DNA of 63,241 nt, filler included, from Asterionella formosa (GCA_002256025.1; 27 parts of 27 records of this genome joined end to end with filler, not necessarily neighbours in it); one strand, 5' to 3'; counted from the first letter of the whole stretch, positions 5,796 to 59,761 are shown. Numbers and translations are program-made. Notes: generated from the sequence alone by a model not told the origin.

Positions 5796-6121
5796 GGCAT
5801 CAGTGAATTTTTTTTTGGAGTGTTTGTACTAATGAGCAGAAAAAGAGTGAAAAATAGATATAAATAGCGAGGATAAGTTTGTTGATGACGATTGTCATGC
5901 CCAGCTTCCAATTCATTTTTTTACACCAGTTTTTTCCTGGCCTCGTCAAGGCTTGCAGTCTTGTTTGCCTGCAAAAAGTACGTAGTAAATGCCCCATACA
6001 TGGAAATTCTTGGATACGAAAGGTTTGATCGGTACTCAGTATTTATTAGCTATTGCTTTTTCCTTCGTATTATTCTTTTTCTGAAAAGTCGACCTCCATG
6101 TTGGTGCAGATGAACCACGCC

Positions 6122-7081
6122 ATGACATCTTTTGCTCTCCCTTCGGGCAATGTAATGCCTGGTCTCGGTTTAGGGACGTGGAAATCAGATCCTGGCGTGG
6201 TTGGCGATGCCGTGCAGAGTGCCGTGTCGATGGGATACCGCCATTTGGATTGTGCTGCCATTTATGGAAATGAAAAAGAAATCGGGATCGCACTCAAACA
6301 AATATTTGACGACATTCCACGGAAAGAAGTATTCATTACCAGCAAATTATGGAATACGATGCACCATCCAGATGACGTGGAATCCGCGCTGCAGCAAACC
6401 TTGGCGGATTTGGGATGCGACTACTTGGATCTTTACCTCATTCATTGGCCTGTCGCCATGGACAAGAACGACAATTCATACATTTCTTTGGAAGATATGC
6501 CACTTTCCAAGACATGGGAGGCCATGGAGAAATGCAAGGAGAAAGGTCTTGTCAAGGATATTGGTGTTTCCAATTTCAGTGTTAAGAAGCTCAAGGTTCT
6601 CTTAGCATCTTGCAAAATTAAGCCAGCTGTGAACCAAGTGGAGCGTCATCCGTACCTTCAACAGCCAGAGCTGTTGGACTATTGCATCAAAAATGGGATT
6701 ATCTTGACTGCATACTCTCCATTGGGTTCCCGCGATCGTCCATCTGGACTGAAGTCGGACAGTGAGATTGCAGTGCTCGACGATCCTGTGATTGCCAAAA
6801 TAGCCAAGAAACATCAAGTGACACCAGCCCAAGTTCTTCTCCAATGGGCCCTGGCAAGTAAAACATCAGTGATTCCAAAGAGTGTCTCTGTGAATCGTCA
6901 GAAGGAAAACTGGGAGGCCGCTGCGAAGTTTGTATTGGATGAGCATGATTTAGCAGAAATTAAGTCGTTGGACAGGCACACCCGATATGTCGATGGCTCA
7001 TTTTGGTGTGGTGACAACAGCCCGTATACCATAGAAAACTTGTGGGATGAAGTGAATATGGCTGCAAGTTCTGATAACTAG
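6122..7081 (+). CDS. Aldo-keto reductase, copy 2 (319 aa, intronless)
   Basis: Near-identical paralogue of 1553-2512; ATG at 6122 aligns with the copy-1 start; all AKR motifs intact. Confidence 0.95.
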   Translation: MTSFALPSGNVMPGLGLGTWKSDPGVVGDAVQSAVSMGYRHLDCAAIYGNEKEIGIALKQIFDDIPRKEVFITSKLWNTMHHPDDVESALQQTLADLGCDYLDLYLIHWPVAMDKNDNSYISLEDMPLSKTWEAMEKCKEKGLVKDIGVSNFSVKKLKVLLASCKIKPAVNQVERHPYLQQPELLDYCIKNGIILTAYSPLGSRDRPSGLKSDSEIAVLDDPVIAKIAKKHQVTPAQVLLQWALASKTSVIPKSVSVNRQKENWEAAAKFVLDEHDLAEIKSLDRHTRYVDGSFWCGDNSPYTIENLWDEVNMAASSDN

Positions 7082-9434: not shown

Positions 9435-10359
9435 TTTTTTAAAACAAGAGATTCACAGATATTTGTATGTTTGTTGTCGGTGTCGACGGCAAAAGTCGAC
9501 AAAGAGGATTCGGCGCTCGTTCGGCTGAGAAGATTGAAATTGAGGATTTAGGAGGCTGAAACAAATGAAATGACAGACCAACCCAAGGCTCGAGCAACTG
9601 AAACGGGGGCGACGAATGCCGAGAGACGGAATCAAATGCTGTTCCCTTTGCGACAAGAGATGTGAGCACAATTGCGAAACATACGGTTTTTATCTACCGG
9701 TGGTACACCAGAACAGGTACCAGGTACCTGCCGTCAGGTGAGTTTATACGAAAATCCCCAAGCATCACGCACTGCCTTGAAAAAATAAAAGAACAATCCA
9801 TTTCGTATACCGGTATATCATCACCAACGTAAAATGTCATAAGTATCGCTCTCGTTGAATTCTACGCAATCCAGTAACTTCTCAGGTTCAAATCAACACC
9901 CGCCGCCTTTCAAAAATGTGTCAAGTCACGGCATTCAGCTGGTTCTGGCCCGGCGCGTGTAGAACCGCTTGCGTCACTACGCGGGCCATATGAAGAGTTG
10001 CCGTGGTCGACATTGGTACACCATGTACTCTACATACCCGGTAGACTAACTGTTCCTAGTCCCCTGGTACCAGGTACCAGTGTTGCATTCTGTGTTATGA
10101 TTGCCTCTACACAGAAACCCGTATCAATGTTATATTGCTTGCTTGCAGACCAATGCATTCGAGGGCGGCTCCCAATGGTACCAGGTACCAGGTACTCCAA
10201 GTACAAGTTTTTAGAACAGTAGTTCCGGTATGTGGTAGACTACTGGGGCGAAGGTTCATGAGCACGTATGTACGCATGTACTGATTATTATCGTCGGGTT
10301 TGTTGGCTAATTATGAGAACAGCAAGCAAGTCACCACGGCAGGTTCCAGATGTCAGATA

Positions 10360-11493
10360 CCTGCAAGTTGCGGTCATTTTGCTCAAGGTTGTGGCCCTGC
10401 CTTAACCCTAGTTTGGATAAAATATCGCTAGGGTTGTAAAAATGGCATGGAACAGGGAGTTTCCTACATGAATTCCCATGATTCGAGTGTCCATTTGAAT
10501 GTTTGAATTAAAATGGAATTGGCACCAGATTGATAGAGTTCCATTTTAAACAAACAAAAACGATTTTTAATTGTTAATACTGTATGTAGACATGAGTCTG
10601 CTCAATGCCAAAACACATATATAAATCAGGAGTATGTCAACATGTATGCTCATGGTTCGTGTTTATACATTATATCAAATCTACACTGCTGTATGTAGGT
10701 TTAATAAAAGCATTGTGTTACAAGGTACCAAAGTACCAGAGTACCAGTGTGCCAATAGTACATAATCTTGGTTCATGATGATGGAAGGCAGGATGAAACT
10801 AGTACTGGTGTTCCGGTATTCTACTGATTTTGCCTGCTGGTATGGCATGTCTAATAAGTGTGGCTGGCGTGACTTTACAAGACCGGAGTACTTCAGCCAA
10901 TCTGGAGCAGGTGAGTCAGAATATGTGTGGTGACATGGCAACATACCCTGGAATATATGAGAACGATTTGCACATACAAATTCCGATTCCAAAAATTTGG
11001 CGACTGTTGAAAAAGCCGATTGAGTTGACTTTTTGGAGGAGGATTGCTCTACATCTGTGGGGTTTCATCAAGATTACAGTAGATAGCCATGTACCCTATA
11101 ATGTCAGGAGTTAACTTCTGGAGAGAAACTGCAGTTATATATTGTAGATTTTTAGAAAAGCTTCGTAGCCCCTTTTTTGACTATTTTTGCGATAGTTATG
11201 AATCTACGATACATAACTGCAGTTTCTTTCCAGAAATGAGGTCCTTACCATATTTGAAGATGGAACATGCCCCAAAGTCGACCCATGACTGCTTCTAAGC
11301 ATATGCAAATTGGTCGTATTGGTGAAAGCTAATTTTACCTTCAACTATTTTATATACTGGTGCGTAATGTCTGGATTAAGGTACATCATCAAATTATTTT
11401 GGAAAAAACGGACCTCGCAATGTGTAACTGCGGGGCCGCAACAATTCAATTTAATCTGGGATAAAGATAGCTAAAATCACCACAACTTGCTGT
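10360..11493. mobile_element. Non-autonomous TIR element (MITE/foldback-like) with TA flanks
   Basis: TA|CCTGCAAGTTGCGGTCATTTTGCT ... AGCTAAAATCACCACAACTTGCTGT|TA degenerate TIRs; same TIR at 48059-48149 and 56632-56655; internal 35-bp inverted repeat. Confidence 0.6.
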
Positions 11494-12944: not shown

Positions 12945-13532
12945 TTAGTTAGGAATGAGGGAGACTCCGAGCTTCTCGTGAACCATGAGTGCAAGGATTC
13001 CCATTTGCGCAGCACGGCCTTGGTTGAGCTCAATGGCACGCTTGGATAGTTGGGTCTCCTCATCGAATGTGTCCCAGCCAAAGTCAATGGCGTCATTACG
13101 GAAATCACCAACGAATTCTCCTCCAGTAATGTCCTTCATGACGGCAAGCTCGAGGAAGCCGATGAAGGCAACAATTTGGGCGATTCCGGCGCTGGAGATC
13201 GCATCCAATGCTCCAAAGCCGTTAGGGATGGAGGCAAAGGTAGTGCCGGAGTAGTCAATGTTACCTGGGAGACGGATGCCGTTCTCGGCAACGAGGTATC
13301 CGACGACGGCAAGCATGGAGATACGTCCGTGCTTGATCTCGACGTATCGTAGACGGTCGAACTTGGCTTGGTCACCATCAGCAACGAGGCCAAGAGGATC
13401 CCAGAATCCAAGAGGAGCCTGGGCACCGAGCTCACCCTCGAAGGTGATGGGCTTGACAACCTTGGCACCCTTCTTGGGGGCGGCCAAGGCAGCGACGGAG
13501 GCGAGGAGGGAAGCGATGATTACGGACTTCAT
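12945..13532 (-). CDS. Lhcf: Fucoxanthin-chlorophyll a/c binding protein (Lhcf/FCP), plastid-targeted
   Basis: GAQAPLGFWDPLGL, FDRLRYVEIKHGRISMLA, KRAIELNQGRAAQMG motifs; signal peptide; strong C-ending codon bias. Confidence 0.97.
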   Translation of the reverse strand: MKSVIIASLLASVAALAAPKKGAKVVKPITFEGELGAQAPLGFWDPLGLVADGDQAKFDRLRYVEIKHGRISMLAVVGYLVAENGIRLPGNIDYSGTTFASIPNGFGALDAISSAGIAQIVAFIGFLELAVMKDITGGEFVGDFRNDAIDFGWDTFDEETQLSKRAIELNQGRAAQMGILALMVHEKLGVSLIPN

Positions 13533-15349
13533 TGTTTTGTGTTGGGTGAACTTGGTGATAAAGATATGAGACAGCTTCTGGCATTTGGCGGAATCTCCTT
13601 CTTTCGTCTACTACCGGAACATAGCGGTAGTAAGAGTCATACATCGTTACATACACACCATACAGGTAAAAGATTCGATGTGGAAAAGATCCTTCTGTGG
13701 ACAAGAATGCAGTAACAGCAGTATCTCCTCAACGTGATTTCCACCATGCGCATCTTGGGTACCATGCTCTCGTAGACAAAGGGAAGAAAACCAGCTGATC
13801 AAACCTGGTTGTTACGAAAACGACGTAACGGTATCCCATCGACTGAAATCTAGATTACCGCCAAGCTCAACATGATTACCGGCACTCTACGTACCGTTTA
13901 CTACATATGGTTCTATTATGGACAAGGCAGAGCGAAGGGAGCGAATCTTAAATAACGACCTGTTGGTACCAGGCACAGTACAGTATGCACCAGGAACCGT
14001 CTGGATGTTTTCTCCGTATGAAGGGTGCACCGGAGAACCGGTACACTGCCAGTGTTGTTATTACCGATACTTGTCCCGGGTTCACTCTATTCATATTACA
14101 GGGTTGAATGGCTGGCTGGCTGGCTGCGTCAAGCCAATTGACAAAAGAGATTTTTTCTTGTTACTTGGTCGGTCACTGGCAGTATGCAAGTCCTTATATC
14201 ATCCGAGGGACGACGACGAAAGACTTGTTGTGACTCAAAATACCGGTACTTACTAAGTTTAATCATGCATTGTTAAATGATGTACCAGCAGTCACGCAAA
14301 AGCATTCTTCTCCTTGTGAAGGGCAAGATTGTATGTACTGCTCGTGTGTAGTTGAAAACTTTGAGGTGAACATGTGTCCTCCTCAATTTTGCCGGGGGTC
14401 CATCCAGGAAACGTTACGCATGCATGGGGGAGAGGCGTAGGAGAGTGGCGGCGACGAATGAAGTGGTACAAAATTATGTATCGGAAGCAAAGGTTGGAAG
14501 GGTGGTCCATTAGGTTGTTTCGTAGAGCCGTGAGGCCGGTATTTATATGAAGATCTGATTTGTATGGTGATAGGAACCAATTCTTGGTGTTCATCAGACA
14601 ATGTCAAGTCCAATTTTTAGAGCCAGCGCCACACTAGATATTGTTCATGTTTGCTTCTGTTGATTTGTGCTTTTTTTATCTCGCGGCCAAAGACCAAATG
14701 TTGAGAATGGAAGGATAATTGTCGTGCCAAAAGATGAACAAAATACAAAACACTCTCGTTTCGACTGTTGGTATAAATGATTGCTGCGCTATGCCTTGGA
14801 AATGAACCCCGACTGCGTGACGAATGATTCTCGACTGACAGTATGGAAGAATTTTTAGCTTGTGCTACCAAGATGTTTGAGTTGGGGCAATTATTGAGCA
14901 TTACTTTGAAAAATCGAGTAAATTACGTGGTTTAAAAAACGAACGACCAGCAGCTGCAGCCAAGGCGTGCAAAAGCACCGACTTTCTCAGAGAGTACTTA
15001 AAGGGGCTTGAATCGCAATTGTATGATCTTGTCCAAGGATATGATTACGATTTAATTCCAAAAAACGAATAAGAGGACAAGGCAAAGGTTCTTTTTCTAT
15101 GCGGTATTGCAAATCTCATTACTATCGATCTGGGTTTAAAGTGCAATTCTTACAGCTCCTTTTGTCATTCAGGGATTAGATTTACGTGTTGCTACATATT
15201 TAGAGACAGGTTAAGACAAAGCCACAACAGGACAAATTTTAGTTTGGTTGGAGGAATTCAAGAAGTTTCTCGATGCGAGAGGAATGGAAATACCCGAAGA
15301 CCGTTTAGAAGGAGACCGGAGAGCTGTCTTGATCGTTTACGTTGCTCCC

Positions 15350-16522
15350 CTAGCCTTTTTTGGATTTGCGGAAGTACCTTCTTCCTTTGCCCTTTTTCGC
15401 TTTAGATGATTTCTTTTTGCCTTTACTCTTGCCAGATTTGACAGGAATGTAATCATTATAATACGGTAACTCACCAGATTTGGATTCAGGAGAATAATTA
15501 TCATAATACGGCTCCATTCCTGATTTGGGTTTCGGAACGTAATCATCATAATTTGATCCCGAACCAGATCCTTTGTAGGAAACTGGTGCAGGAACAGGAT
15601 CGTGGTAGGAAACTGGTGCAGGAACAGGATCGTGGTAGGAAACTGGTGCAGAAACAGGATCGTGGTAGGAAACTGGTGCAGCAACAGGATCGTAGTAAGA
15701 AACTGGTGCAAGAGCTGGAGCAATGATTGTCGGATGTAGAGGACTAGGTATTGGTATGAAGATAATTGGTGCTACAGTTACCGGAGCCCTAGCGTCTGGA
15801 GATAGAGTAGCGACTTGAGGACTGTCTGCTGGAGGGATCAAGACGTAGGGTGCAGTAGTTACCGGAGCCGTGGTATCTGGAGGAAGTGGGAGAATTAAAG
15901 GGATTTCTGTAGGAGGGATCGAGACAATTGGTGCAGTAGTTACTGGAGCCACAGAATCTGGAGGTGGTGTTAGGATTAAAGGAATGCGTGTAGGAGGGAT
16001 CAAGACAATTGGTGCAGTAGTAACCGGCGCGGTGGTGCCAAGAGATAAAATATCGGGTAGAGGAATGCCTTGTGGAGGGAGCAAGAATGTTGGTGACAAG
16101 GATGGTACAGGTGGTGCCGTACCTCCAGATTCAGTGTTGCGAACTGGTGCATTAGTGACTGGGGTGGGAGCTGCAGTTGCAGGGTCAGGCACCGAAGGGT
16201 AGGGGGCCACCGTACCAGGCATACAACCACATTCCGCGGTAAATTGTACTAAAAGCGAACAAGCTGAAGGGTCAATATAGCCAAGTAAGCCCGCAGCTTG
16301 TAGAATCGAACACGATGTTTCAAATTTTTCAGGAGCAGCAACAACGCCGTTTGGAATGGTAATGACCATTCCTTCACCGCAAGCTTGACATACAGGATAG
16401 CCAGGGTTGGGAGGAGCCGTTATCAATGAACGATGGCTCGATCTGCCAGCACCATCAGGAGATGCTATCGCTGACTTGCAGATAGCGGCAAGGAGAAAAG
16501 GAGTTGCAAAACTCTTCTTCAT
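15350..16522 (-). CDS. Secreted Cys-domain plus Pro/Thr-rich repeat protein with Tyr-rich and Lys-rich tail (cell-wall/biosilica/adhesive candidate)
   Basis: Signal peptide, RSL motif, CxxC...C...C...CGC domain, 27-aa APVTTAP repeats, 10-aa APVSYHDPV(P/S/A) repeats, KSGKSKGKKKSSKAKKGKG tail. Confidence 0.85.
   Translation of the reverse strand: MKKSFATPFLLAAICKSAIASPDGAGRSSHRSLITAPPNPGYPVCQACGEGMVITIPNGVVAAPEKFETSCSILQAAGLLGYIDPSACSLLVQFTAECGCMPGTVAPYPSVPDPATAAPTPVTNAPVRNTESGGTAPPVPSLSPTFLLPPQGIPLPDILSLGTTAPVTTAPIVLIPPTRIPLILTPPPDSVAPVTTAPIVSIPPTEIPLILPLPPDTTAPVTTAPYVLIPPADSPQVATLSPDARAPVTVAPIIFIPIPSPLHPTIIAPALAPVSYYDPVAAPVSYHDPVSAPVSYHDPVPAPVSYHDPVPAPVSYKGSGSGSNYDDYVPKPKSGMEPYYDNYSPESKSGELPYYNDYIPVKSGKSKGKKKSSKAKKGKGRRYFRKSKKG
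15575..15710 (-). repeat. Coding 30-bp tandem repeat, about 4.5 copies
   Basis: GTAGGAAACTGGTGCAGGAACAGGATCGTG units. Confidence 0.9.
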
Positions 16523-17050
16523 GCTGTCAATGCGCTTTTTTAAAAAGTGATCCGATGAATGGAATTTAGCTTTTCTACCTACATACCGGGTATTGGTATT
16601 TGAATATACCCGGTATACCAGTAGTCAAATGATCTGCACACTTCGCTCACCTAATTTATTGTTGGCTGACACGACTAACATTCAAATTCTCGTCAGAAGA
16701 CATAATAATAACCGCTTATTGCCTGTATTTCAACCCCACTGTAAAACTGTACAGTGATGTCATACCAGAAGCAAGGTCCGGTAAATGTTGATTATCTCTA
16801 CATACCATGAATGTACGTGAAAATTATGTCATAGATCCGTTATTGGAGTACCTCATTCGTACATACTCGTAATATATAAGAGGTCAGTCGGCCATGGCTG
16901 CACGATGGTAACTGAGTACCAGGTGTTAATATCTGCATATGATGCTCCATACATGCGCCGTACGAACCATACCGGCGCAGCCACCAGATTAGGTACATGC
17001 GTGAGTGCTAACAACGATGTACTTGGAACAGCAATAGAATAGTCATAATA

Positions 17051-17616: not shown

Positions 17617-18213
17617 CTCAATGTATGTTGTTCCTGTCTCACCCTATTCTTCCTCTGTTCTGAATCGTGTGCGAGGCAGCAGTGCCTCACTGATGCTGCG
17701 TCTCTTTCCCTGTTGTAAGTGTCATTCTGAACTTGCCGACTATTCCGTTGTTTGATTGTTTTTATTGTCCTATGCATGCAGTTACAGTAACAATGAGAAG
17801 GAATGATTTGTTAGCTAGTCATGTTACATTGACACAAGAACGCGCAATTCCATCGTATCCTCTTGCTTCACTTACCACAAATCAATGCAACTGATGCATA
17901 AGTCTGTAATAGAAACTTGTCAGTAAATTCTTGAATAAGTAAGTTTCGGGTATCCAATGTTGTGGAATAAAACTTACCGGTTCATTTTTGTCAGCTTAAC
18001 TTTGAGAGAATATAAACGTTTTGTTAGTTTTGTTCCAACAGAAGTGAATAGGTCCAACGAGCGACAAGAGCACTTACGCAATTTGGTTTGGTTTTGTTTT
18101 ACATTGGTGCTCCCCAACAAGCGAAACGAGCTGTTGAATCAACTGAGAAAAAAGGAAATGTGCGTTTAGTTAACAATTTGTTGTTGTGCTGCCTGCCTCC
18201 CAACGATTGTCAT
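17617..18213 (+). repeat. Unclassified dispersed repeat, copy A
   Basis: High identity to 53270-53660 (reverse strand) and to 50578-50735. Confidence 0.85.
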
Positions 18214-24032: not shown

Positions 24033-24809
24033 NNNNNNNNNNNNNNNNNNNNNNNNNNNNNNNNNNNNNNNNNNNNTTAATTAATTAANNNNNNNNNNNN
24101 NNNNNNNNNNNNNNNNNNNNNNNNNNNNNNNNCATTTTGACGGGATCAAGGAAAGTGTGAGAAGTCTTGTTCGGGATTACATGAGTAATCAGGCAAGAAC
24201 AAGACTAGATAGACTATTAACAGAAAGCTCACAATATTACAAAGTGTAAAGTGAAAATACGTTTTCAGCTTAGAGATCTTAAAAGTAAGATCTGTGATAT
24301 TTCAACTAGACAATTTAACACCGGTATACTAGCTGCAAGATGCGTTAATTTTGCTATACCTTGTTCCATGTATGACTTCGGACACTCACATAAACATGTC
24401 CCGATAAATTGCAAGGATCTGCCTCCATGCAACGAACGAACGAGTCCTTTCACTCTGATACGAGCGAGAGACGAATGTATGTTGCAAAGGCAATCGAACC
24501 GTAATGAAATACCTGTATGTGTAACATTAAACAAAGTGGCGACGACAACAGAATTCGCCTTTTGAAACAATTTTTTATGATTTTGTTCTTTCCAAGCCAT
24601 CGCTGATACGAAGAGACCTTCCTCTCAGTTGGAACAAAATCCTGATCGTCTCGATACCTGCACAAAGCACAGGATCTCTTTGTTGTTTGCATTCAGGGTG
24701 GACTGTATTTGTCAAATAAGCTACTTGTAGGCAAAATCCATTCCGACTCTCGAAGTAAATTCTGGAGTAACTAGTACTATTTATTTTAGAAATCATATGG
24801 TAATCCAGC

Positions 24810-47091: not shown

Positions 47092-48006
47092 TGATCGTAA
47101 TTTTCCTTTCCATATTTTTTACTAATGTTTCTGATTGTCAATTAAGAAACTTTCAAAGAATTTCGCTCTATGTCATTGAATGCGGTTCTACATGTTCACA
47201 CTGAACATCATATTTTTTTCTTTATTACCCTACACAGAAACTCAGCGTGTTCTCCGGTGGAGGATTTATATTGAAGAATATCTTCTCACTTTTCACAATA
47301 TGAAGGGTACTGATAATGTGAAATATTACAGATTCTATCTCTCGCCTCCCGAGGCTTGAGTCTTTGGTGGGGGATGATATTGGACCGAAATTTTCGGCAT
47401 CAACATCCATATCTACTTTCTCAATTGAAGTAGATGATGATTCTTTGTTTACCTGTTCCCTCAATCATCCAATTTTGGCAGACAATATTCAATATCCTCT
47501 GGAATATTACTCAATACATGATAGACCATTGCTGGATATACAATTGATTCTCAATCAAACAACTCATCTCATTCCCAATCAACAAACCAAACACATCTGT
47601 TAAATTTTCCCTCTATCAATTTTCATCATATACATTTAATGTATTTTGTGAAGAATCCAGGAGATACCTGACGTATTGTTATTCCTACATCACTATCGAA
47701 TCCTATGGTACAGTTACTTTTCAACAAACTATGCATACAACGGAACGAATTAATATCCATTACATCAAACCTTTTCAAAGGTAAAAGGTTTTCCCTTGGT
47801 GTGGGAGAGTGAGCGATCTTGCGCATCAATACAGATGTATATAGGGTTAGTGTTATATCATATATGTATAAGAACTCAATAATGAGAAAACTCGACTAAC
47901 CCTCATTGTATACTTTGGTGTCGACTTGGAGAACGAGTTACACACAAGGATTAACAAATAAGCTCATATATTCAACAAATACTACTACTTCTAGTTAGAT
48001 ACTTCA
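47092..48006 (+). mobile_element. 3' end of LTR retroelement: non-coding 3' region, PPT and 197-bp LTR (47810-48006)
   Basis: GGTGTGGGAGAG purine-rich tract then TGAG...TTCA LTR; upstream region shared with 57009-57441. Confidence 0.9.
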
Positions 48007-48058
48007 CAAGGTACCCGTAGGCACCATTAGCTTAATGTATACCGGTACATCCTCCGGA

Positions 48059-48149
48059 CCTGCAAGTTGCGGTCATTTTGCTTTAACTAACATTTAATCT
48101 ATGATAAAGAAAGCTAAAATTTTAGTTTCAGCAAAATTACCGCAACTTG
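48059..48149. mobile_element. Tiny MITE of the CCTGCAAGTTG TIR family
   Basis: CAAGTTGCGGTCATTTTGCT ... AGCAAAATTACCGCAACTTG inverted ends. Confidence 0.7.
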
Positions 48150-48253
48150 GTGCNNNNNNNNNNNNNNNNNNNNNNNNNNNNNNNNNNNNNNNNNNNNTTA
48201 ATTAATTAANNNNNNNNNNNNNNNNNNNNNNNNNNNNNNNNNNNNNNNNNNNN

Positions 48254-49315
48254 GTGAATTATACAACATGCTGAAGAAAGCATTGTATAAGGGGACTGCA
48301 CATCATATAATTGATGCAAATGGGCTCCAGAGTGGTCATGATGCCTGGACTGGATTAAAGATGTGGTATGGAAAAGCTGAAGTATCAAGGACCCTTATTG
48401 ATCACTACAGGAATCAACTCAATGAGTTACGACTGTCCAATAAGGTGAAAGCAAACGAGTACATAAACACGTTCATTCTCTGCAGTCGAAAGTTGGAAGA
48501 TAAACATGAAGGCTACACTGAAGCAACAAAACGGACTAAATTCCTTGATCAAATTGAGGATGAAGACTATGATGTTTGCGTTCAGAACCTTCGTGGTGAC
48601 ACCAACAAGACTTTTGATGAGTGTGTTCAACGTATTCGGAGCAGAGAACAGGAATTGGAAAGATTCTCACGAGAGAGTTCCACCAAGGCAAGGCGTGCAA
48701 CAACTTTTACAAGTAAAGGTGGAGCCACACCTAAATCATCTAAAGACAACCAAATTCCTTTCCTCCCCACACACCTACTCAATACAATTAAATCCAATTC
48801 TATCAAGAAAGATCTATTTAAGTGGAGAAGTGTCTGGAATAATGAAGGAAGGGCAATTCGTGTTGACGAGTTGACTGGCGCCAATGGAGATGCCAAGAAA
48901 GACGACAACTCAGTCGAATCTGACGAGGGATGCCACTCCAAGAACAAGCCAAAGACAAGAAAGCGCAAGAAGAAGGCTAGAAGGACAAAGACCTCAGCTT
49001 CTGGATTATGCGATACGGCTACACCTCATGTAAAAATCAAGGACTCTGATGACAAAGACAGTGAGGATGATGGAGATGATAGTGACCAGGAAAGAAATCC
49101 TACAACAAGTACCCAAAGGAAGAAATCTAAGAAGGAGACTCCCAGGAAAAAGAAAAAGGGACGTCGCAACCCAGTACTCCGACGTGGACGCATTTCGGGG
49201 GAAGCAGCAAGGGTTGTGCTTGATGGAGGAACTGAATTTGAGGTCATTGGCGGAGTCGGATGGAGAGTTCTGGAAAAAGTGAGCAAGAGCGCAAAACTGC
49301 ATGGTTGGGGGGCCA
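48254..49315 (+). mobile_element. Ty1/copia (CoDi-like) gag-protease fragment, open frame
   Basis: SGHDAWTGLKMWYG, KRTKFLDQIEDEDY gag-like motifs, VVLDGGTEFEVIGG protease-like motif. Confidence 0.7.
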
Positions 49316-49415
49316 NNNNNNNNNNNNNNNNNNNNNNNNNNNNNNNNNNNNNNNNNNNNTTAATTAATTAANNNNNNNNNNNNNNNNNNNNNNNNNNNNN
49401 NNNNNNNNNNNNNNN

Positions 49416-50477
49416 TTCATGTCAGGGTGCACGGCAAAAGCCGCATCCACCCACGACCTCATCTTGCCCATGTCGTCGGCTCCAATGGTGTATTCCACAT
49501 CCATACTTCCATTTATGTATTCCAACACCCGTCGTAGCTTTTGCTGATCTTGTTTGGTGCTTTTTGATACCCTGGTGCATAGGAAACTGACCGCCAGTAG
49601 CAAATCCGCTCTTGCCCTGATCGAAACGTAAAGCAGTTTCGCCACTACACTATGGAAAATCTCGGCTTCGTTCTGGCTCAAAAAGGAGACTCCTCATCCA
49701 CTTCAAATAAACACTTCTGGGCTGGCGTGGCCACTTCCCGTGTGATTTCCATCCCTGACTCGCTCAATGCTTCCTTAAGATATTCCTTCATAGTAATGAC
49801 AGCTGTGCCCTTGCCTGTGTATTGTATGTGCATACCCAGGAAAATGTGCTCTGTTCCTCTGGTGACAGTCATTTTGTCAAAACGCCCCTCGATTTTTTCG
49901 ATAATTGATGTCATGACGTCCGGGTCCACATGCGAAATCTTGTTGTCGTCTACATACCACGCAATCGTGCACTGCTTCCCGTTGATTTTGCAGTTAGCAA
50001 TGCAAGAGTCGTAAGGGTTTAACACAAAACCCATCTCTTTTAGGGTGTTGTGGAATAAATCATACCATAGTAGGGCAGATTTGACGCACCCATAGATCGC
50101 TTTCACTAGCCTGACGTACAACACCTTGTTTCCTTTCTCGTTGGACACAAAATTCGTGTGCTCTGGGTTCATGTTGCATAATATATCGACTGATTCACCA
50201 GTGAATTTCATGACAACGAAATCATCCATATCTGCTTTCAAATACGCACCCGCCACATCTGCTGTGGCGACATCTCTTCCTTCATGTGCATCAATCATGA
50301 TGGACAACATGAGTGCATCGGTGGATACTGTTGGAGATGCCGTCTGCGACTTGTCATAAAGTGATCGCTGCGGTCTCCCGTCGGCTACTGTACGCCCCTT
50401 GAGGCGCCCGTCTCTCTTCTCTTTGATGAGATTGATGGCTCGGAGCGCTCCCGTCCTCTGTTCCCTGGTAAGGGAGT
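49416..50477 (-). mobile_element. Ty1/copia reverse transcriptase / RNase H fragment with one frameshift (~49680)
   Basis: LKGRTVADG, SPTVSTD, ADVAGAYL, KAIYGCVKSALLWY, YVDDNKISH, WVDAAFAVHPDM. Confidence 0.93.
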
Positions 50478-50577
50478 NNNNNNNNNNNNNNNNNNNNNNN
50501 NNNNNNNNNNNNNNNNNNNNNTTAATTAATTAANNNNNNNNNNNNNNNNNNNNNNNNNNNNNNNNNNNNNNNNNNNN

Positions 50578-51100
50578 GAGCGACAAGAGCACTTACGCAA
50601 TTTGGTTTTGTTTTGTTTTACATTGGTGCTCCCCAACAAGCGAAACGAGCTGTTGAATCAACTGAGAAAAAAGGAAATGTGCGTTTAGTTAACAATTTGT
50701 TGTTGTCCTGCCTGCCTGCCTCCCAACGATTGTCATCCAAGTACCACATTGATGGCTTCATTACCTTAAACATTCTCCATCCTTCGAAGGCCCAATGTAT
50801 CGAAGTCACAATGTTTTTCGTAATGTATTGCGAAAACTTTCTTTTCTTGTCATGTGCTTTACTACGACGTATCTTTTCATGAAGCAGCAGGCATTGTTTG
50901 TTAACATGACAAAACGATTTCAAAAATATATATGCCATGTATATAGTAATAAAATTTGTATATATATATATATATGAAGCGTTGTACATTTATAAAATTC
51001 AAATGCGCTCTCGATATGGAACATCTCATATGATTGAGATGATCATACTCGCATATAAATAATTCGAAAATACTCAATGCACTATATGTCCATTGTTTTC
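50578..51100 (+). repeat. Unclassified dispersed repeat, copy B
   Basis: Reverse-complement match to 52900-53430; direct match to 18059-18213. Confidence 0.85.
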
Positions 51101-51272
51101 CACGACTACGTGTACCGTGTAAGTCATAACCGCCAGGGTTATGGTGGCAAATTGTTTAAGCCCCCTTTTTGATTGGGAGCTCTTCATGTGTACCGGTACA
51201 TCATATGACAATAACAATATATCATATATATATACAGAGTACCAGTAGCAGGTAGTAAGTGATATACTGGGG

Positions 51273-51638
51273 GTAGTCGGAGTAGTAAACTAGCAACAGA
51301 ACACCATATGTTCAGGACTGTTGCTACTGCAGTGGGACAGTAAATTATCATAGTTTTAGGATCATATGATCGTAAAACTAAAACCAAATAGAACACCATA
51401 TGTTCAGGACTATTGCAATTACAGTGGGACAGTAAATTATCATAGTTTTAGGATCAAATGATCATAAAACTAAAAACAAATAGAACACCATATGTTCATG
51501 ACTGTTGCAATTACAGTGGGACAGTAAATCATCATAGTTTTAGGATTGTATGATCGTGAAACTGAAAAGCGGTACCGGTAGTCGGAGTAATAAGCAAGCA
51601 ATAGAACACCATAGTAAATCATCATAGTTTTAGGATTG
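51273..51638. repeat. Minisatellite, 92-bp period, about 3.5 copies
   Basis: AGAACACCATATGTTCA at 51298, 51390, 51482, partial at 51603. Confidence 0.9.
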
Positions 51639-52461
51639 NNNNNNNNNNNNNNNNNNNNNNNNNNNNNNNNNNNNNNNNNNNNTTAATTAATTAANNNNNN
51701 NNNNNNNNNNNNNNNNNNNNNNNNNNNNNNNNNNNNNNTGAGCGATCCCCACCACATCTACGAAAAAAAGGCTGGCTCCCTGTGGTCCAACCTCGATTAG
51801 CGTGTGAGTACCGGCATGTGCACTGTCGACTTTAGTACAATACAGGCGGAGTGACTTCGCTACTAAATTGCGTGATATAATAATATACCCTGTAGCACGA
51901 TGCAGAATACAATTGCTTCGCAATCATCTCATCATGATTGATAAGATGATACCAGGTACCAGGTACTGTGATATCATGATAAGGTTACATCGATTCATAC
52001 ATCACCAAAGTATTACACGTAATATTGAATAAAGTACATTTCAGAACTATGATACACTAATCATAAAACTATGATGATTTTATGTAATAATTATGATATA
52101 ATTGTGATCGAAATATGATTATGTTAAAATAATACAATGATAATAAAATACGATAAAATATATACGCAAGTGTTACCAAGACATCATAGAAAAATAACAA
52201 GTAATCATAAAGTATGTTAATTAATATATGTGTTTGTCGTTTAATGTATACAGTTAAAGTCAACAGTTAGCTAATATGATAGTATTATACAGTGGATAGC
52301 AAGTGTTGGTCGATCAATCGGCGAAATCACTGGAGAAACAGATGTAATAGGAACCTCTGTGATTAGGCTAGGAGAAGCGACTGGAGATGCAGAAGAAACT
52401 GGGGGTGCATCAGGAGGAAGTGTAGCAACTGTTGGTCGGTCAATAGGCGAAATCACTGGAG

Positions 52462-52799
52462 AAAGCAATGAATTTACCAGGGAAGAGAAGCTCCTCTGTA
52501 ATAAATTTAGATCCGGTGTAGAGGAACGGAGTGCCAATGAGGAGGAAGAACAACGGGTTGATTCTCAACACAGTCGACAAGAGTTCGAAACCAATACCAA
52601 GCCAAACACTTGTGAGAACAATAATGGCGGGAAGGTAGAGAAGATTTGATCTGAATTGGTCTTCTTTCAATGTGACAGTGCAAATTCCAGTGTCGATCTA
52701 GCATTTTGGAGATGTTGAGACTGCAAACTTCGATCCAGTTTCCTTGAGCTCCGTCTTCAATGCGTCAAACTCAGCATCTGGCATCATCGGTTCACCTTT
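52462..52799 (-). pseudogene. PGRL1: PGRL1-like gene fragment with in-frame stop, fused to a Pro/Ser/Thr-rich repeat fragment
   Basis: KGEPMMPDAEFDALKTELKETGSKFAVSTSPKC*IDTGICTVTLKEDQFRSNLLYLP then two TM helices; TAG at 52700-52698. Confidence 0.7.
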
Positions 52800-52899
52800 N
52801 NNNNNNNNNNNNNNNNNNNNNNNNNNNNNNNNNNNNNNNNNNNTTAATTAATTAANNNNNNNNNNNNNNNNNNNNNNNNNNNNNNNNNNNNNNNNNNNN

Positions 52900-53660
52900 G
52901 AAAACAATGGACATATAGTGCATTGAGTATTTTCGAATTATGTATATGCGAGTATGATCATCTCAACCATATCAGATGTTCCATATCGAGAGCGCCTTTG
53001 AATTTTATAAAATGTATTACGCTATAAATATATATATAAATTTACAAATTTTATTACTATATTCATGGCCTATATATTTTTCAAATCGTTCTGTCATGTT
53101 AACAAACAATGCCTGCTACTTCATGAAAAGATACGTCGTAGTAAAGCACATGACAAGAAAAGAAAGTTTTCGCAATACATTACGAAAAACATTGTGACTT
53201 CGATACATTGGGCCTTCGAAGGATGGAGAATGTTTAAGGTAATGAAGCCATCAATGTGGTACTTGGATGACAATCGTTGGGAGGCAGGCAGGACAACAAC
53301 AAATTGTTAACTAAACGCAGCCACATTTCCTTTTTTCTCAGTTGATTCAACAGCTCGTTTCGCTTGTTGGGGAGCACCAATGTAAAACAAAACAAAACAA
53401 AACCAAATTGCGTAAGTGCTCTTGTCGCTCGTTGGACCTATTCACTTCTGTTGGAACAAAGCTGACAAAACGTTTACCTTCTCTCAAAGTTAAGATGACA
53501 AAAATGAACCGGTAAGTTTTATTCGACAACATTGGATACCTGAAACTTACTTATGCATCAGTTGCATTGCGTTGTGGTAAGTGAAGCAAGAGGATACGGT
53601 GGAATTGTGTGTCGTTGTGTCAATGTAACATGACTAGCTAACAGGAACAATATACATTGA
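52900..53660 (-). repeat. Unclassified dispersed repeat, copy C
   Basis: Spans and links copies A and B; lacks ~175 bp present in copy A. Confidence 0.85.
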
Positions 53661-54060
53661 GAAAACTCACACTGATCTTCCTCTTCATTCAATTGACATT
53701 GCAGCAAACCCTTTCAATTCAGGAGCATTCGGATGAAATCCAGGATGGAGTATTGATGCTTTCTGATTTTGTGTTAATGTCATATGATAACAGGGCTCCG
53801 TAAATCATGAGTTGTTAGTGTGCCTTGGCGTGATGTTTGTCATGCTGCCAGCTGATGCTGCATTTCTACTGAATTATTGAACGACTATGCGAATCTTTAT
53901 GTGCCAGTTGTTCAATAATTCAGTAGAAATACAGCAGCAGCAATACAGCAGCAGCTGGCANNNNNNNNNNNNNNNNNNNNNNNNNNNNNNNNNNNNNNNN
54001 NNNNTTAATTAATTAANNNNNNNNNNNNNNNNNNNNNNNNNNNNNNNNNNNNNNNNNNNN

Positions 54061-55121
54061 ACCAAGCAGGACTGGCTTTGATAGTTCGGTGTCGGATTGG
54101 GGCATTTGTAACTGTCCCCACCTTGGTGGGGTGGAAGCGAATGCCTCATAGGTATTTGAGGAAGTGTCCATTTTGTGGTATGGATGAGCCAGAAACGCTG
54201 GAACACTTAGTGTTCACGTGTGGTCGGTGGCGTGGTCTACGCACCGAGCCACACATGGCAGAATTGATCGCGAAAGTTCGGACGTTAGGGCCGAATTTCG
54301 CCCTCGGTTTTGACCAACAACGGTTGGCATGGCTCCTCGGAGGGAGTTGTGACAACCGCTGGGTACATGGATGGATGGTGGGTGAACCAACCGGAGTCAC
54401 AGCACAGCAAAACTGTGACTCTTCGGTTGAAAGCTCATCATCCGATGGGGACGGTAGCCAGATGGAACGGAACCCGGCAGGGGCCACCACCCTTGCCAGG
54501 TTCCTGATGAGCGTTGTTAGCCTTCGTGCTAACATAATCAGGTCCCGTTGGGGGTCTTACGCAAGTGAGGCATTTGACGGGGTCCCACACACCTCCACGG
54601 GCCAACGCCCCGACGGGTAGGGCAGACCGCGTACTGGTCAAGACTGGGGCTGCACACAGGTTTTTAGTGAGTGAAAGTCTCACACTACCTCGCCCAGGTG
54701 AGAGGGGCGGGGTGCCTCACCGGACACTGGGACATGATTGGATGACGGGGTGCCTCAAAAACATTCCTGAACACATGAACTGGTGGGAGGAGTTCGAATC
54801 CTCCCATGATGCCCCCCAAGCACCCCACATCGATGGGGCAGGCGGGCAAAGCGGCCGGATAGGTTTTCTCCTGGCGCCTTGGAACAGCCAAAAAAAAATG
54901 CCGAGGCCTCGGCAGTCGTGGGCTGAGTCACTGGTCGTCTCAATACCTAAGAAAGGGGACTTGGCTGATATGAACAACTATCGGGGGATCCCACCGGAAA
55001 CGTGGTTAAACTATCTCACCGAAATGTGGCAAAACTAGGTGGGTGGGATAGGATTCTTGATGCTATGGGTGGCATGCACTGGAGTTCTGTCTCCTACCCC
55101 ACTCCCACCTGAGTATTCACT
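54061..55121 (+). mobile_element. Non-LTR retrotransposon (LINE) remnant: C-terminal zinc finger plus displaced RT fragment
   Basis: CPFCGMDEPETLEHLVFTC (zf-RVT-like) and LVVSIPKKGDLADMNNYRGI; GC-rich contig. Confidence 0.8.
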
Positions 55122-55431
55122 NNNNNNNNNNNNNNNNNNNNNNNNNNNNNNNNNNNNNNNNNNNNTTAATTAATTAANNNNNNNNNNNNNNNNNNNNNNN
55201 NNNNNNNNNNNNNNNNNNNNNGTCGCAGATTTGTTGCTTTCAGCATAAACTAATAAAATAATTGTTCTCGACACCAAGAACTGCTTGTTGGTTCACGCTC
55301 CATTAATCCAAGCGAGAATCGTAACGTGAGCCAACTGTATTGAAACTTAATAAGAGGCAGCACATGCACAATTAGAAGTGTGGAACACCGAAGGAAAACT
55401 CGCACCTGCGAGCAAAGAAGGAGGTACAAGG

Positions 55432-56281
55432 TGAGCGATCTTGCGCATCAATACAGATGTATATAGGGTTAGTGTTATATCATATATGAATAAGAACTCA
55501 ATAATGAGAGAACTCGACTAACCCTCATTGTATACTTTGGTGTCGACTTGGAGAACGAGTTACACACAAGGATTAACAAATAAGCTTATATATTCAACAA
55601 ATACTACTACTTCTAGTTAGATACTTCACTTTGAATTCAAAAAGAGTCCAATTAGAATTAATATTGTTGATGTCCTCTCAAGTTCCAGTGGTCCCATTGA
55701 TGAAGGATAACAACAAACTAAACATCAAGATTCAAACTTCTTTGTGTATCCTTACAAGCCAGGTCAACATTTGGAGTCTTACAGAAAAGATATGATCAAT
55801 TGACGCTCAGGGGAAGCTTGTTTATTGATTTCAGTAAATCCTGTGATATGGCTAACACATATATCTTCAGTCCAGCAGATTCCTTGCTTGTTCACCTACT
55901 GCTACAAAAGATGGCTCACAGATATCGTCTTGTCTGACTGGATGAGCGTTGCAATACACTCAAATGCTCAGTCCCACCATAACAGTCTCAACAAGAAAGT
56001 CATAGTGATGTGGCTGGAAGATTACCTTCTTCATGATATCTCTGAGAGTCAATAACAGTGGCTTGATGCCATGATATTACTCAATAAAACATTTCAACAT
56101 GTTTATAATCGACTTCGACTTTGCTGCTTGTCTCAAGACCTTAAAGATGCTCCCAAAACTCATGATAACTCATCCAGAAGATCAAGAGGTTTCCGCCAAG
56201 GAAGATTTGAGGTTGATTGTCATTTTGCTTGATCGACAATGCGTGGCAACAAGTGTTTGAGTGGAACAATGAAAAGAACAA
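55432..56281 (+). mobile_element. 5' LTR (55432-55628) of the 197-bp-LTR family plus degraded downstream gag-like region
   Basis: LTR differs at 3 of 197 positions from 47810-48006; no PPT upstream; broken ORF follows. Confidence 0.8.
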
Positions 56282-56381
56282 NNNNNNNNNNNNNNNNNNN
56301 NNNNNNNNNNNNNNNNNNNNNNNNNTTAATTAATTAANNNNNNNNNNNNNNNNNNNNNNNNNNNNNNNNNNNNNNNNNNNN

Positions 56382-56630
56382 TCTTTGCTAAAAGTGAGAA
56401 AATTGAATGAGCAGCATTGCTGTCAACATGAGATCCCGTAATCACTAGCCTCTGCAAGGTAGTGTTGTGTTCTGCATACGAGCAGATACCCACAATTTCC
56501 TCAGAACCAAATTCAGTATGCACGAGAAGCAAGTTTTTTAGGCTGCGGTTGCGAAGCAACATTCGTCCAATAGAATCTGAACATGTTGGTCCGATACTTC
56601 CTTGTTGAAGGCAAAGCTCTGTACACGAAG
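56382..56630 (-). pseudogene. Leucine-rich repeat (RNI-like) gene fragment
   Basis: IGRMLLRNRSLKNLLL, HNTTLQRLVITG repeats; truncated by gap, no clear start. Confidence 0.5.
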
Positions 56631-56811
56631 TAGCAAAATTACCACAACTTGCAGGTACTCCGAGCACAGCAAAAGAGCAAATGCCAGGGCTACGTATTTG
56701 GTTGTACCTCTGGAAGGTCTGGTAAAACTCATTTATACTTTGAAGAAGGTGTAGCAAAATAACTCCATTACCAGGTACCTGGTACCAGACCTTCCTCAGG
56801 TTAGTACCTGG

Positions 56812-57441
56812 TGAAGTATCTAACTAGAAGTAGTAGTATTTGTTGAATATATGAGCTTATTTGTTAATCCTTGTGTGTAACTCGTTCTCCAAGTCGACAC
56901 CAAAGTATACAATGAGGGTTAGTCGAGTTCTCTCATTATTGAGTTCTGATACATATATGATATAACACTAACCCTATATACATCTGTATTGATGCGCAAG
57001 ATCGCTCACTCTCCCACACCAAGGGAAAACCTTTTACCTTTGAAAAGGTTTGATGTAATGGATATTAATTCGTTCCGTTGTATGCATAGTTTGTTGAAAA
57101 GTAACTGTACCATAGGATTCGATAGTGATGTAGGAATAACAATACGTCAAGTATCTCCTGGATTCTTTACAAAATACATGAAATGTATATGATGAAAATT
57201 GATAGAGGGAAAATTTAACAGATGTGTTTGGTTTGTTGATTGAGAATGAGATGAGTTGTTTGATTGAGAATCAATTGTATATCCAGCAATTGTCTATCAT
57301 GTATTGAGTAATATTCCAGAGGATATTGAATATTGTCTGCCAAAATTGGATGATTGAGGGAACAGGTAAACAAAGGTTCATCATCTACTTCAATTGAGAA
57401 AGTAGAAATGGATGTTGATGCTGAAGATTTCGGTCCAATAT
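56812..57441 (-). mobile_element. 3' end of the 197-bp-LTR retroelement (LTR 56812-57008, PPT, 3' non-coding region)
   Basis: Reverse complement of ~47380-48006 with a few substitutions. Confidence 0.9.
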
Positions 57442-58234
57442 NNNNNNNNNNNNNNNNNNNNNNNNNNNNNNNNNNNNNNNNNNNNTTAATTAATTAANNN
57501 NNNNNNNNNNNNNNNNNNNNNNNNNNNNNNNNNNNNNNNNNGTTGGAATTGAAAGCTGCAGAGATCTTGTGAATGATTTGAACTTGGCACTGAACGCAGC
57601 CTTTGAATCGTATGAGAAGTAGGACACCAACCTTCTTCGGCGTGCTGCATGGCTGGTGGAAGTTGTCTTGTGGTTAAATTCGTCTGAAGCCGATAACAGG
57701 GTTGTGAAAACTCTGAACGATCGGGATAGCTGGATTTCTTCTCGTTTTCCCCTTGCAGGCAGAAAAATACTTGCCAAACTACAAGTGAAGGAGTACCGGT
57801 ATTATAATTTCTTGCCCGAGAATGCAGACTACAAGGCGCTGAACTCTGCAGTAGTATGTAATGCCAAAATATGGTCACACGGTATGTAGGCACATTTTCC
57901 CTCAAAAATGGAAATCGTATCCTTCTGATGTTCCTGGTACCTGGTACCTGGTACCAGGTAGTCAAATTATTAGTCCTCAGCATTTTCACCATTAAAAAAA
58001 AATTTACTCTCACAGAATGTTATACTACGACCTGGTACCAGGTACCGATGTACGGGGACCTTAATTCAGAACACTAAAATACCAGGGGTACCTATCCTAG
58101 AGGCGCGAGTAAAGGTTGACCGAACTAGTGGCGGTGGGGTACCGGTAGACTACTCATACCAAATACCGGTATGGTACCAGGTACCGAACTCCATGATGGT
58201 GAATCTTACGAAATATAAAAAGAAAAATAATAAA

Positions 58235-58260: not shown

Positions 58261-58279
58261 CTGTGAAATAAAATAAATT

Positions 58280-58361
58280 CGACGACGGTGAGATTCGAAC
58301 TCACGCGCTCATAGAGCAATGGATTAGCAATCCATCGCCTTAACCACTCGGCCACGTCGTC
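58280..58361 (-). tRNA. tRNA-Ser(GCT)
   Basis: GACGACGTGGCCGAGTGGTTAAGGCGATGGATTGCTAATCCATTGCTCTATGAGCGCGTGAGTTCGAATCTCACCGTCGTCG: full cloverleaf, long variable arm, GCT anticodon, T-rich terminator. Confidence 0.97.
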
Positions 58362-58701
58362 ACCAATTTTCCAGTACATTGGAAGTTATCTTACTGTGAA
58401 CACTAATAATTTCTATACCTTGAAAAGAACTCAAAACATAATCATAAAAATTTTTTGCTACCGGTAGTAGAGTTGTTCATATTGGATAACATGTTACAAA
58501 TCGAAATCTACCTGCAGCGTTAATTTGCATTACTAAATCTAGTTCCACGTACGACTTCGTACCGGCAGTACTCATTCCAATTCCAAACTGATACATTTGT
58601 CNNNNNNNNNNNNNNNNNNNNNNNNNNNNNNNNNNNNNNNNNNNNTTAATTAATTAANNNNNNNNNNNNNNNNNNNNNNNNNNNNNNNNNNNNNNNNNNN
58701 N

Positions 58702-59761
58702 TTGTTAATCCTTGTGTGTAACTCGTTCTCCAAGTCGACACCAAAGTATACAATGAGGGTTAGTCGAGTTCTCTCATTATTGAGTTCTTATACATATATG
58801 ATATAACACTAACCCTATATACATCTGTTTTGATGCACAAAATCGCTCACTCTCCCACACCAAGGGAAAACCTTTTACCTTTGAAAAGGTTTGATGTAAT
58901 GGATATTAATTCGTTCCGTAGTATGCATAGTTTGTTGAAAAGTAACTGGACCATTGGCATATACTTGAATAAATAGAATAAGGACTTCGCCCATGGTTAT
59001 CCAAGGTAGTAGGATTATCCGATAGGATTAAAACCTCATCAACAACCTTGTAATCGCAAGAACGACGACGGAAAGTATCACGACGTAGTCATTTGTCAAT
59101 TATCACTTATCGACATTGATATCCCAATATCAATTACATATCTATAATCAAATCATGTTGTAAAACCCATGTTCCTGGTGAAAATACACAATGTACTATA
59201 AATAGTAGCTCGAGCTGCATATGATGCAGCAAACTGGTATCCACAATATTCTGAACTTGAAATTCCTTGATTGGAGGATGAGCCTTTAACATGACTTGTA
59301 CATAGACTTTTAATGTGTATGAAAGGAATACCAGTAAATTGACCTCCATTGTCATGTATACAACCTTCTGGATGGAGATATCCGTCCAACCAATCATTTT
59401 TAAATTTCATCGCAATATATTCTGATGTCTTATTATTGATATGTGAAATTTCTGGTAAATTGGTGACTGTGTTAACTCAAGTTGGAGCATGAAATTCAAT
59501 CGCTTGTGCAGTCACTGTTATCTTCCATGGACCAATGAAATCCACTGTGACTTCTGAGCATTGTAATAACAATGCATTCCTTGGTGAAAGTTCACCAAAA
59601 CCAAGCATCAGGTAATTTTGTACGTTTTGACATGTTTCATATATGCTTGCAATATGTTCCACTCTTGCTTTTAATGGAGGATAGTAAAAATGTGTAGAAA
59701 CTGTGGCATTTCATCTTGTCATACCCACATGAGCTAACATCTGATGATACCAATAAATAAT
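58702..59761 (-). mobile_element. Ty3/gypsy-like remnant: degraded integrase, PPT and partial 197-bp LTR (58702-58849)
   Basis: WYHQMLAHVG, VDFIGPW, CIHDNGGQFTG integrase motifs upstream of the same LTR on the same strand. Confidence 0.85.

Follow-up and report, generated by a model that had tools for sequence, protein, structure and literature searches.

Long terminal repeat (LTR) retrotransposons, like retroviruses, mostly select their targets through chromatin or tethering proteins and show weak sequence preferences. Tf1 of Schizosaccharomyces pombe is guided in this way by the host protein Sap1 and is not known to duplicate a fixed word. Sequence-specific targeting is rare for the Ty3/gypsy class, the insect errantiviruses with their 4-bp targets being the one textbook exception. 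The available part of PMC5408687 treats sequence-specific integration as confined to errantiviruses and elements derived from them, and describes palindromic 4-bp targets (TATA, CGCG, ATAT), termini of the form AGT..AnT and, in many members, env. According to the portion of PMC3706591 at hand, strict specificity for a multicopy sequence had been seen only among non-LTR retrotransposons. Here we describe a stretch of 63,241 bases from the diatom Asterionella formosa (hereafter the window), which carries copies of a Ty3/gypsy-type element with a 197-bp LTR. As judged from its insertion junctions, this family very probably integrates sequence-specifically into the motif GTACCWGGTAC. The GyDi direct-repeat supplement of PMC2806351 aside, we found no description in the diatom literature of such targeting or of this motif.

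The closest parallel in behaviour is provided by the Drosophila errantiviruses and their two-ORF (open reading frame) derivatives of the gypsy, ZAM and Idefix subgroups, which, in the same excerpt of PMC5408687, are likewise placed in the Ty3/gypsy group and integrate specifically at palindromes. The diatom element works like them without being a member: it shares the palindromic target, but it has TG..CA instead of AGT..AnT ends, a 5-bp (reconstructed) instead of a 4-bp duplication, a target of 9 nt per side (13 in total), no room for env and no two-ORF organization, and its host belongs to another eukaryotic supergroup. Ty3 of Saccharomyces cerevisiae is its best sequence relative among solved structures (7q5b, 4ol8), with the same domain order and base-precise integration, and is positioned by TFIIIB at genes transcribed by RNA polymerase III (10.1101/2021.07.27.453949, in the part available). 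In contrast to Ty3, the feature common to the junctions of the diatom element is a DNA word. Targeting of tRNA or other RNA polymerase III genes was rejected for this family: no tRNA was found in the seven metagenome loci with host junctions or next to the window junctions (the flanks cover 78-3717 nt, so that a more distant gene is possible), and the only tRNA of the window (58279-58362) lies on a contig without LTR. Among diatom elements, GyDi1 and GyDi2 of Thalassiosira pseudonana (Maumus et al. 2009, PMC2806351, compared by description only) have the same order, PR-RT-RNaseH-IN (protease, reverse transcriptase, RNase H, integrase); the main text of that paper, as far as available, gives no target preference for GyDi and calls the duplicated target site of the copia groups "quite heterogeneous". 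The accessible part of a 2025 preprint on diatom transposable elements deals with insertion times, not sites. Tf1, also of Ty3/gypsy type, has a compact host genome, in which it is directed to promoters and intergenic DNA (PMC5741268, in part). Finally, repeat-targeting non-LTR retrotransposons and Dada DNA transposons strictly target multicopy sequence as a safe site (PMC3706591, same portion), as the diatom element would; their chemistry, however, relies on an endonuclease with target-primed reverse transcription or on a transposase, whereas the diatom element is an integrase-bearing LTR element.

Spacers of N or TTAATTAATTAA link the 27 contigs that make up the window, two of them 17 kb long and the other 25 about 1,060 bp each. 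Every junction sits on its own small contig, and the order and distance of the junctions are therefore meaningless. Four copies of the TG..CA LTR, 97-98.5% identical to each other, were found (Table 1). Three share the approximately 105 nt ahead of the TG, which hold the last pol codons (...NGTVTFQQTMHTTERINIHYIKPF), the stop codon and a purine-rich tract ending in GGGAGAG. This polypurine tract (...AAAGGTAAAAGG...GGTGTGGGAGAG/TG, the slash marking the boundary here and below) occurs in the same or a slightly diverged form in nine metagenome loci; the 40 nt preceding the LTR are also identical in seven of them (L001, L005, L006, L007, L009, L010, L014) and diverged in L002 and L012. The three copies are thus 3' LTRs. 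The fourth, at 55432, is preceded by host DNA and followed by conserved internal sequence beginning CTTTGAATTCAAAAAG, which makes it a 5' LTR. Its junction, at 55431/55432, reads GGAGGTACAAGG/TG; of the 3' junctions, the one at 48006/48007 reads CA/CAAGGTACCCG and the minus-strand one at 56812/56811 reads CA/CCAGGTACTAAC. All three agree to the letter with the first-pass annotation.

With the final 20 nt of the LTR as query, a scan of metagenome contigs yielded 19 loci (L001 to L019), seven of them with host junctions; eight run from the pol end through the LTR into internal sequence, one ends at the LTR and three start inside it. The eight continuous loci could represent collapsed assembly, tandem elements or one-LTR circles. 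The same 20-mer found no match in a collection of genome contigs, nor in one of viral contigs. Window and loci together provide five 3' half-sites (CAAGGTACC, CCAGGTACT, CCAGGTACT, CCAGGTACC, CCAAGTAAC), four of which contain CMWGGTAC exactly, and six 5' half-sites (GGTACAAGG, GGTACCAGG, GGTACAAGG, GTTACCTGG, TCAACTTGG, TTGCAGACG), of which three contain GTACMWGG exactly and one more does so at one mismatch. The 8-mer occupies 69 of the 121,906 oriented positions of the window (5.7e-4, the junction sites themselves included), and the binomial probability of its presence at the junctions against this frequency is 5e-13 for the 3' side and 3.6e-9 for the 5' side. Extending the flanks to more LTR ends, which had been proposed as a check, therefore placed the motif exactly in register at most of the 3' ends and half of the 5' ends. 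In 9 of the 11 junctions the flanks share no sequence beyond 9-14 nt.

The junctions were then compared with contigs of four public runs from four studies (X1, X2, X3 and X7), aligned to the contig 55222-56281. The tails in Table 1 follow the CA and a shared C at 55629. In all four runs the consensus leaving the LTR end was CA/CCAGGTACC (85 contig tails among those listed), followed by a decaying second unit; agreement over 30 letters was just 0.49-0.63 overall, indicating that the flanks differ past the motif. On the 5' side, eight listed contigs of X1 read ...GTACCT+GG/TG, and two listed contigs of X7 carry GGTACAAGG/TG with different upstream sequence; the 72 X1 tails listed at 55431 come from 3' LTRs, on the side of the polypurine tract. 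In one X1 contig, exactly CCAGGTACAAGG (12 nt) stands between the end of one LTR and the start of another. Read as CCAGG, TA, CAAGG, this joint fits two 5-bp duplications 7 bp apart, as two insertions in adjacent heptamer units would leave them. An orientation bias of the central W was dropped as inconsistent, the element sense strand having A in most 3' flanks and T in the X1 5' consensus. Public runs that contain the sequence are mostly freshwater, river, wastewater and algal metagenomes. A high copy number is suggested; the summed word depth over the LTR, 10-1000x that of unique flank in all four runs, is not a copy number and was not used.

A second repeat in the same contigs served as a control. 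It begins TGTTAGCTAGTC or TGTTAGCTAGTCATG (TGTTAGC...), lies at 17809-18213, 50578-51100 and 52900-53643, is 92-97% alike between contigs and is probably the LTR of a different element. Both of its visible 5' junctions (...GGAATGATT/ and ...TATTGTTCC/) lie outside the motif, showing that the association belongs to the 197-bp LTR family and not to contig ends or repeats in general.

The motif itself is strikingly abundant. Matches to GGTACCWGGTACC at up to one mismatch number 22 in the window against 0.01 expected, and GTACMWGGTAC gives 38 strand-matches, that is 19 sites, in 60,953 bases against 0.12 expected strand-matches (about 0.06 for sites); none of 100 shuffles reached the observed count of either. 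The sites are clustered as 2-4 units of period 7, (GGTACCW)n, for example at 10177-10196 and 57936-57955, and GGTACC alone occurs 51 times in 61 kb. On the two long contigs, none of the 13 core sites falls within a Pfam-supported ORF, and three of the four clusters there are 70-700 bp upstream of the nearest ORF start, a sample too small to call a promoter element. The finding thus draws attention to these arrays as a very abundant intergenic word in Asterionella formosa.

Several further observations concern these arrays. Related GTAC-based palindromes such as TACCGGTA and ACCGGTAG fill intergenic stretches beside GGTACCWGGTACC (e.g. 9690-10260 and 57780-58190). A second intergenic word, GCAAAATTACCGCAACTTG, has five matches at up to three mismatches against 0.05 expected; two copies form an 87-nt inverted pair (48063-48149), and copies are found at a distance of 57-170 nt from the two insertion sites of the window as well as from the array 10178-10196. 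At 16916-17050, 125 nt before the end of a long contig, the half-motif GAGTACCAGG is followed by a TG-start, TGTTAATATCTGC..., with no second copy in the window; another element may begin here, inserted in a target of the same type, or the match may be fortuitous. All that is left of the LTR in L017 (79-110, minus strand) is its final 18-21 nt, between ...ACGGTAC and CCAGGTACCAGG, an arrangement that looks like a motif array interrupted by the stump of an element. GGTACC arrays at 57936-58185 lie 95-340 nt past the 3' end of the only tRNA gene of the window, a tRNA-Ser(GCT) on the minus strand found by ARAGORN and Rfam (66 bits).

The half-sites GGTACCWGG/TG and CA/CCWGGTACC overlap by five bases and rebuild GGTACCWGGTACC, with CCWGG on the axis of the palindrome. 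In the mechanism that we propose, two staggered cuts would bracket the central CCWGG of GGTAC-CWGG-TACC, a palindrome that arises where two units of the short (GGTACCW)n arrays common in intergenic DNA meet. Integration would leave ...GGTACCWGG/TG-element-CA/CCWGGTACC... with a 5-bp duplication. If the two CAAGG junctions of the window belong to one insertion, its unoccupied target would be GGTACAAGGTACC, with a single CAAGG. Of the target reconstructed in the first-pass annotation, the half-sites hold, as they recur at independent junctions, while the central duplication has the standing of a deduction, no contig having both ends. The broader proposal, sequence-specific insertion into intergenic DNA, is supported by the in-register junctions, the four-run consensus and the abundance of the motif.

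Could the motif bases instead belong to a larger composite repeat, or to an element extending beyond TG..CA, so that the junctions are copies of one event? The motif arrays are repeated, the second word co-occurs nearby, L003 and L019 share a host stretch, and contigs from short reads cannot show long context. However, apart from that host stretch the flanks have only the motif in common and diverge within the 9-14 nt given above, and the tail consensus decays past it. Nor are the bases outside TG..CA element, given that internal sequence comes after the 5' LTR, and the pol stop and polypurine tract come before the 3' LTRs. Moreover, two LTR subfamilies, about 85% alike, have the same flanks and target. 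We consider this account very improbable. Still less credit is due to an absence of preference, in which random insertions survived in harmless intergenic arrays or hit the motif by coincidence in a genome rich in it. Two things speak for it, the motif's abundance and the strong selection against genic insertions expected in a gene-dense genome. But survival bias cannot fix a junction to a single base within the motif, the 8-mer is in register at four of five 3' and three of six 5' junctions for all its low frequency, and the visible junctions of the control family, taken from the same contigs, are not in the motif.

More open is what recognizes the target. An integrase of little preference of its own might be tethered and positioned by some host protein that binds the GGTACC arrays and may act at promoters or in chromatin. 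The arrays are host features of intergenic DNA, with clusters upstream of ORF starts; the occurrence of GCAAAATTACCGCAACTTG near both window insertion sites and one further array suggests a structured host module; and Ty3, the nearest of the solved relatives, integrates through a tether. The integrase shows no extra domain. On the other hand, the cuts are made at exact bases, symmetrically about the axis of the palindrome, as direct reading by a symmetric complex predicts, and we know of no candidate host factor. We regard tethering as possible but rather unlikely. To direct reading of the palindrome by a two-fold symmetric integrase-DNA complex, the likelier mechanism and one reported for Drosophila errantiviruses (PMC5408687), we would give about even weight. 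The fuller proposal, that the integrase itself reads an 11-13 bp palindrome with fixed cuts, independently of the errantiviruses, and that the arrays are harmless landing pads for a high-copy element in a gene-dense genome, is tentative and falls somewhat short of that.

Several points weigh against sequence-specific integration as set out here. Three of the 11 explicit junctions do not fit (5' of L004 and L019, 3' of L003), and two of the loci concerned, L003 and L019, are not clean, independent cases, since both have a rearranged variant of the LTR and a stretch of host sequence is common to them. No whole insertion with both flanks was found among the 19 loci, so that the 5-bp duplication is a reconstruction. 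The two CAAGG junctions of the window (55432 and 48006) are on separate contigs, and their joined flanks were found in no locus or window contig, record 17 of X3 and record 25 of X7 stopping at or near the junction. The background frequency comes from 61 kb, not from a genome. The run data consist of consensus letters and one overall agreement figure per place for the contigs listed, beside which there are 322 further loose-end rows; some insertions may have been sampled by more than one run, and the window may derive from the sample of X1. Lastly, the integrase has no extra DNA-binding domain visible to Pfam.

If sequence-specific integration is confirmed, the diatom family would be a second, independent and much sharper case than the errantiviruses, outside animals and fungi, in which a 13-bp palindrome is hit at a fixed base. 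The way in which an integrase complex recognizes target DNA would be open to study in a simple system. The family would also exemplify the natural targeting of safe sites, here in the compact genome of an alga, and might be a starting point for site-directed integration tools in diatoms. Should the integrase itself read the palindrome, it would be the most sequence-specific LTR-retrotransposon integrase described.

We classified the element from the related metagenome loci, since the window pieces gave no integrase hit in Pfam (cut-off E<=0.01). L001 (201-3782, minus strand) contains an open pol of 1194 amino acids, P0001, with RVP at residues 148-240, RVT_1 at 394-551, RT_RNaseH at 639-735 and Integrase_H2C2 at 860-915, that is in the order PR-RT-RNaseH-IN. 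There is also a weak rve match (E 0.005, which falls short of Pfam's own cut-off), and the DDE residues are visible by eye. The closest solved relative in the PDB is Ty3 Gag-Pol (7q5b, E 1.9e-61, residues 350-1052), a kinship with Ty3/gypsy and not with copia or BEL. P0001 gave no Chromo match at E<=0.01, and its last 340 residues gave none even at E<=10. L018 holds a gag-PR-RT frame of 1002 amino acids starting 39 nt after the LTR, and the pol stop lies 26-30 nt before the LTR, which leaves no place for env. These features support an LTR retrotransposon of Ty3/gypsy order, about 5.1 kb long, with one gag-pol frame and without env or chromodomain. The "gypsy-type" label of the first-pass annotation is borne out by the domain order and by Ty3 as best solved relative, and the integrase classification that it had called for comes from the intact pol of L001.

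Table 1. Features of the 197-bp LTR family and its target in the window, in metagenome loci (L) and in public runs (X); a slash marks the LTR boundary, counts of contigs are among those listed, and the GCAAAATTACCGCAACTTG rows are matches at up to three mismatches.
Feature	Position or source	Strand	Sequence or remark
Internal region, degenerate integrase-deleted copy	47092..47704	+	98% reverse-complement match to 57114-57441; no Pfam hit
Last pol codons (integrase C-terminus), stop, polypurine tract ending GGGAGAG next to LTR	47705..47809	+	common to three window copies
3' LTR, 197 bp, TG..CA	47810..48006	+	
Host half-site	48007..48015	+	CAAGGTACC; 48007-48011 presumed target-site duplication
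Host half-site	55423..55431	+	GGTACAAGG; 55427-55431 presumed target-site duplication
5' LTR, 197 bp, TG..CA	55432..55628	+	
5' internal region	55629..56281	+	CTTTGAATTCAAAAAGAGTC at primer-binding-site position, then degenerate leader/gag; no ORF with Pfam hit
Intact motif copy	56774..56786	none	GGTACCTGGTACC; 25 nt from insertion site 56811/56812
Host half-site, minus-strand reading	56803..56811	-	CCAGGTACT; 56807-56811 presumed target-site duplication CCAGG
3' LTR of second, independent insertion	56812..57008	-	flank unrelated to 48007-48153 beyond motif
Polypurine tract, pol end, integrase-deleted internal region of copy 56812-57008	57009..57441	-	
3' LTR, first 148 nt	58702..58849	-	contig end cuts the rest
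Polypurine tract and integrase, H2C2 zinc finger to C-terminus	58850..59761	-	broken by stops/frameshifts; aligns to L001 736-1181 and 173-637
Second intergenic word	10364-10382		GCAAAATTACCGCAACTTG
Second intergenic word	24336-24354		GCAAAATTACCGCAACTTG
Second intergenic word	48063-48081		GCAAAATTACCGCAACTTG
Second intergenic word	48131-48149		GCAAAATTACCGCAACTTG
Second intergenic word	56633-56651		GCAAAATTACCGCAACTTG
5' junction	L015		GGGGTACCAGG/TG
5' junction	L016		GTACCTGGTACAAGG/TG
5' junction	L011		CCGTTACCTGG/TG; 1 mismatch to GTACMWGG
5' junction	L004		GTCAACTTGG/TG; no fit, only TTGG ending
5' junction	L019		TTTGCAGACG/TG; no likeness to motif
3' junction	L017		CA/CCAGGTACCAGGTAG
3' junction	L019		CA/CCAGGTACTCCG
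3' junction	L003		CA/CCAAGTAACATG; CCAAGTAA, 2 mismatches
Tail consensus behind 55629	X1		39 contigs; CAGGTACCTGGTAC...
Tail consensus behind 55629	X7		5 contigs; CAGGTACCGGTACC...
Tail consensus behind 55629	X2		17 contigs; CAGGTACCAGGTCC...
Tail consensus behind 55629	X3		24 contigs; CAGGTACCGGGAAC...

On their sequence, the window's own copies are dead, their integrase being deleted or frameshifted, and related metagenome copies retain long open frames. The integrase is mostly deleted in the copies 47092-48153 and 56382-57441, with the breakpoint at 47704/47705. In intact relatives, the counterpart of the segment 47092-47704 lies between RNase H and the zinc finger of the integrase; in L005-L007 the integrase sequence of the contig 58702-59761 comes immediately after the same 330 nt. 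The gypsy-type integrase remnant noticed earlier at 59100-59760 proved real but broken: its ORF pieces gave no Pfam hit at E<=0.01, its contig is 81-98% identical in nucleotides to metagenome copies, the aligned segments of L001 encode residues 867-1194 of P0001, and the intact ORF of the metagenome copies has Integrase_H2C2 and the weak rve.

Copies of the LTR also occur in a rearranged form (L003 1353-1558, L019 3718-5020), in which its first 87 and last 40-56 nt surround about 1 kb of other repeated sequence; the host stretch shared by these two loci adjoins opposite LTR ends. The element in L004 stops roughly 50 nt beyond its 5' LTR.

A TGG-type primer binding site is not universal in Ty3/gypsy elements, as Tf1 self-primes. 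No tRNA-complementary primer binding site (TGG...) was found after the 5' LTR of the diatom element, where CTTTGAATTCAAAAAGAGTC (55629-55648) contains a perfect 12-nt palindrome (TTTGAATTCAAA) and no TGG. The same sequence follows the LTR in 15 of the 19 loci and is better conserved between the two LTR subfamilies than the LTR itself. It did not match the 3' end of the window tRNA-Ser, and no complementary stretch was seen by eye in the LTR.

The remaining contigs of the window show other genes and repeats. A fucoxanthin-chlorophyll protein (FCP) gene at 12948-13607 (minus strand) matches FCPs in the PDB at E 4e-89, entries which we take to be diatom FCPs and which mark the host as a diatom. 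Two aldo/keto reductase gene copies (1550-2499 and 6119-7068), 4.6 kb apart, are 96% alike across 950 nt, and GGTACC arrays (1430-1496) lie just upstream of the first copy only. Within a long ORF without Pfam hit (15353-16624, minus strand), tandem units of 30 nt and 81 nt were observed at 15554-16117. Two small contigs carry copia-type sequences, a gag (48256-49314, plus strand; Retrotran_gag_2 at E 0.0013, which misses the cut-off) and a reverse transcriptase (49681-50475, minus strand; RVT_2, E 6e-20); they belong to a Ty1/copia element unrelated to the gypsy family under study. Finally, a 92-bp tandem repeat is present in three copies, 86-91% alike, at 51295-51570.

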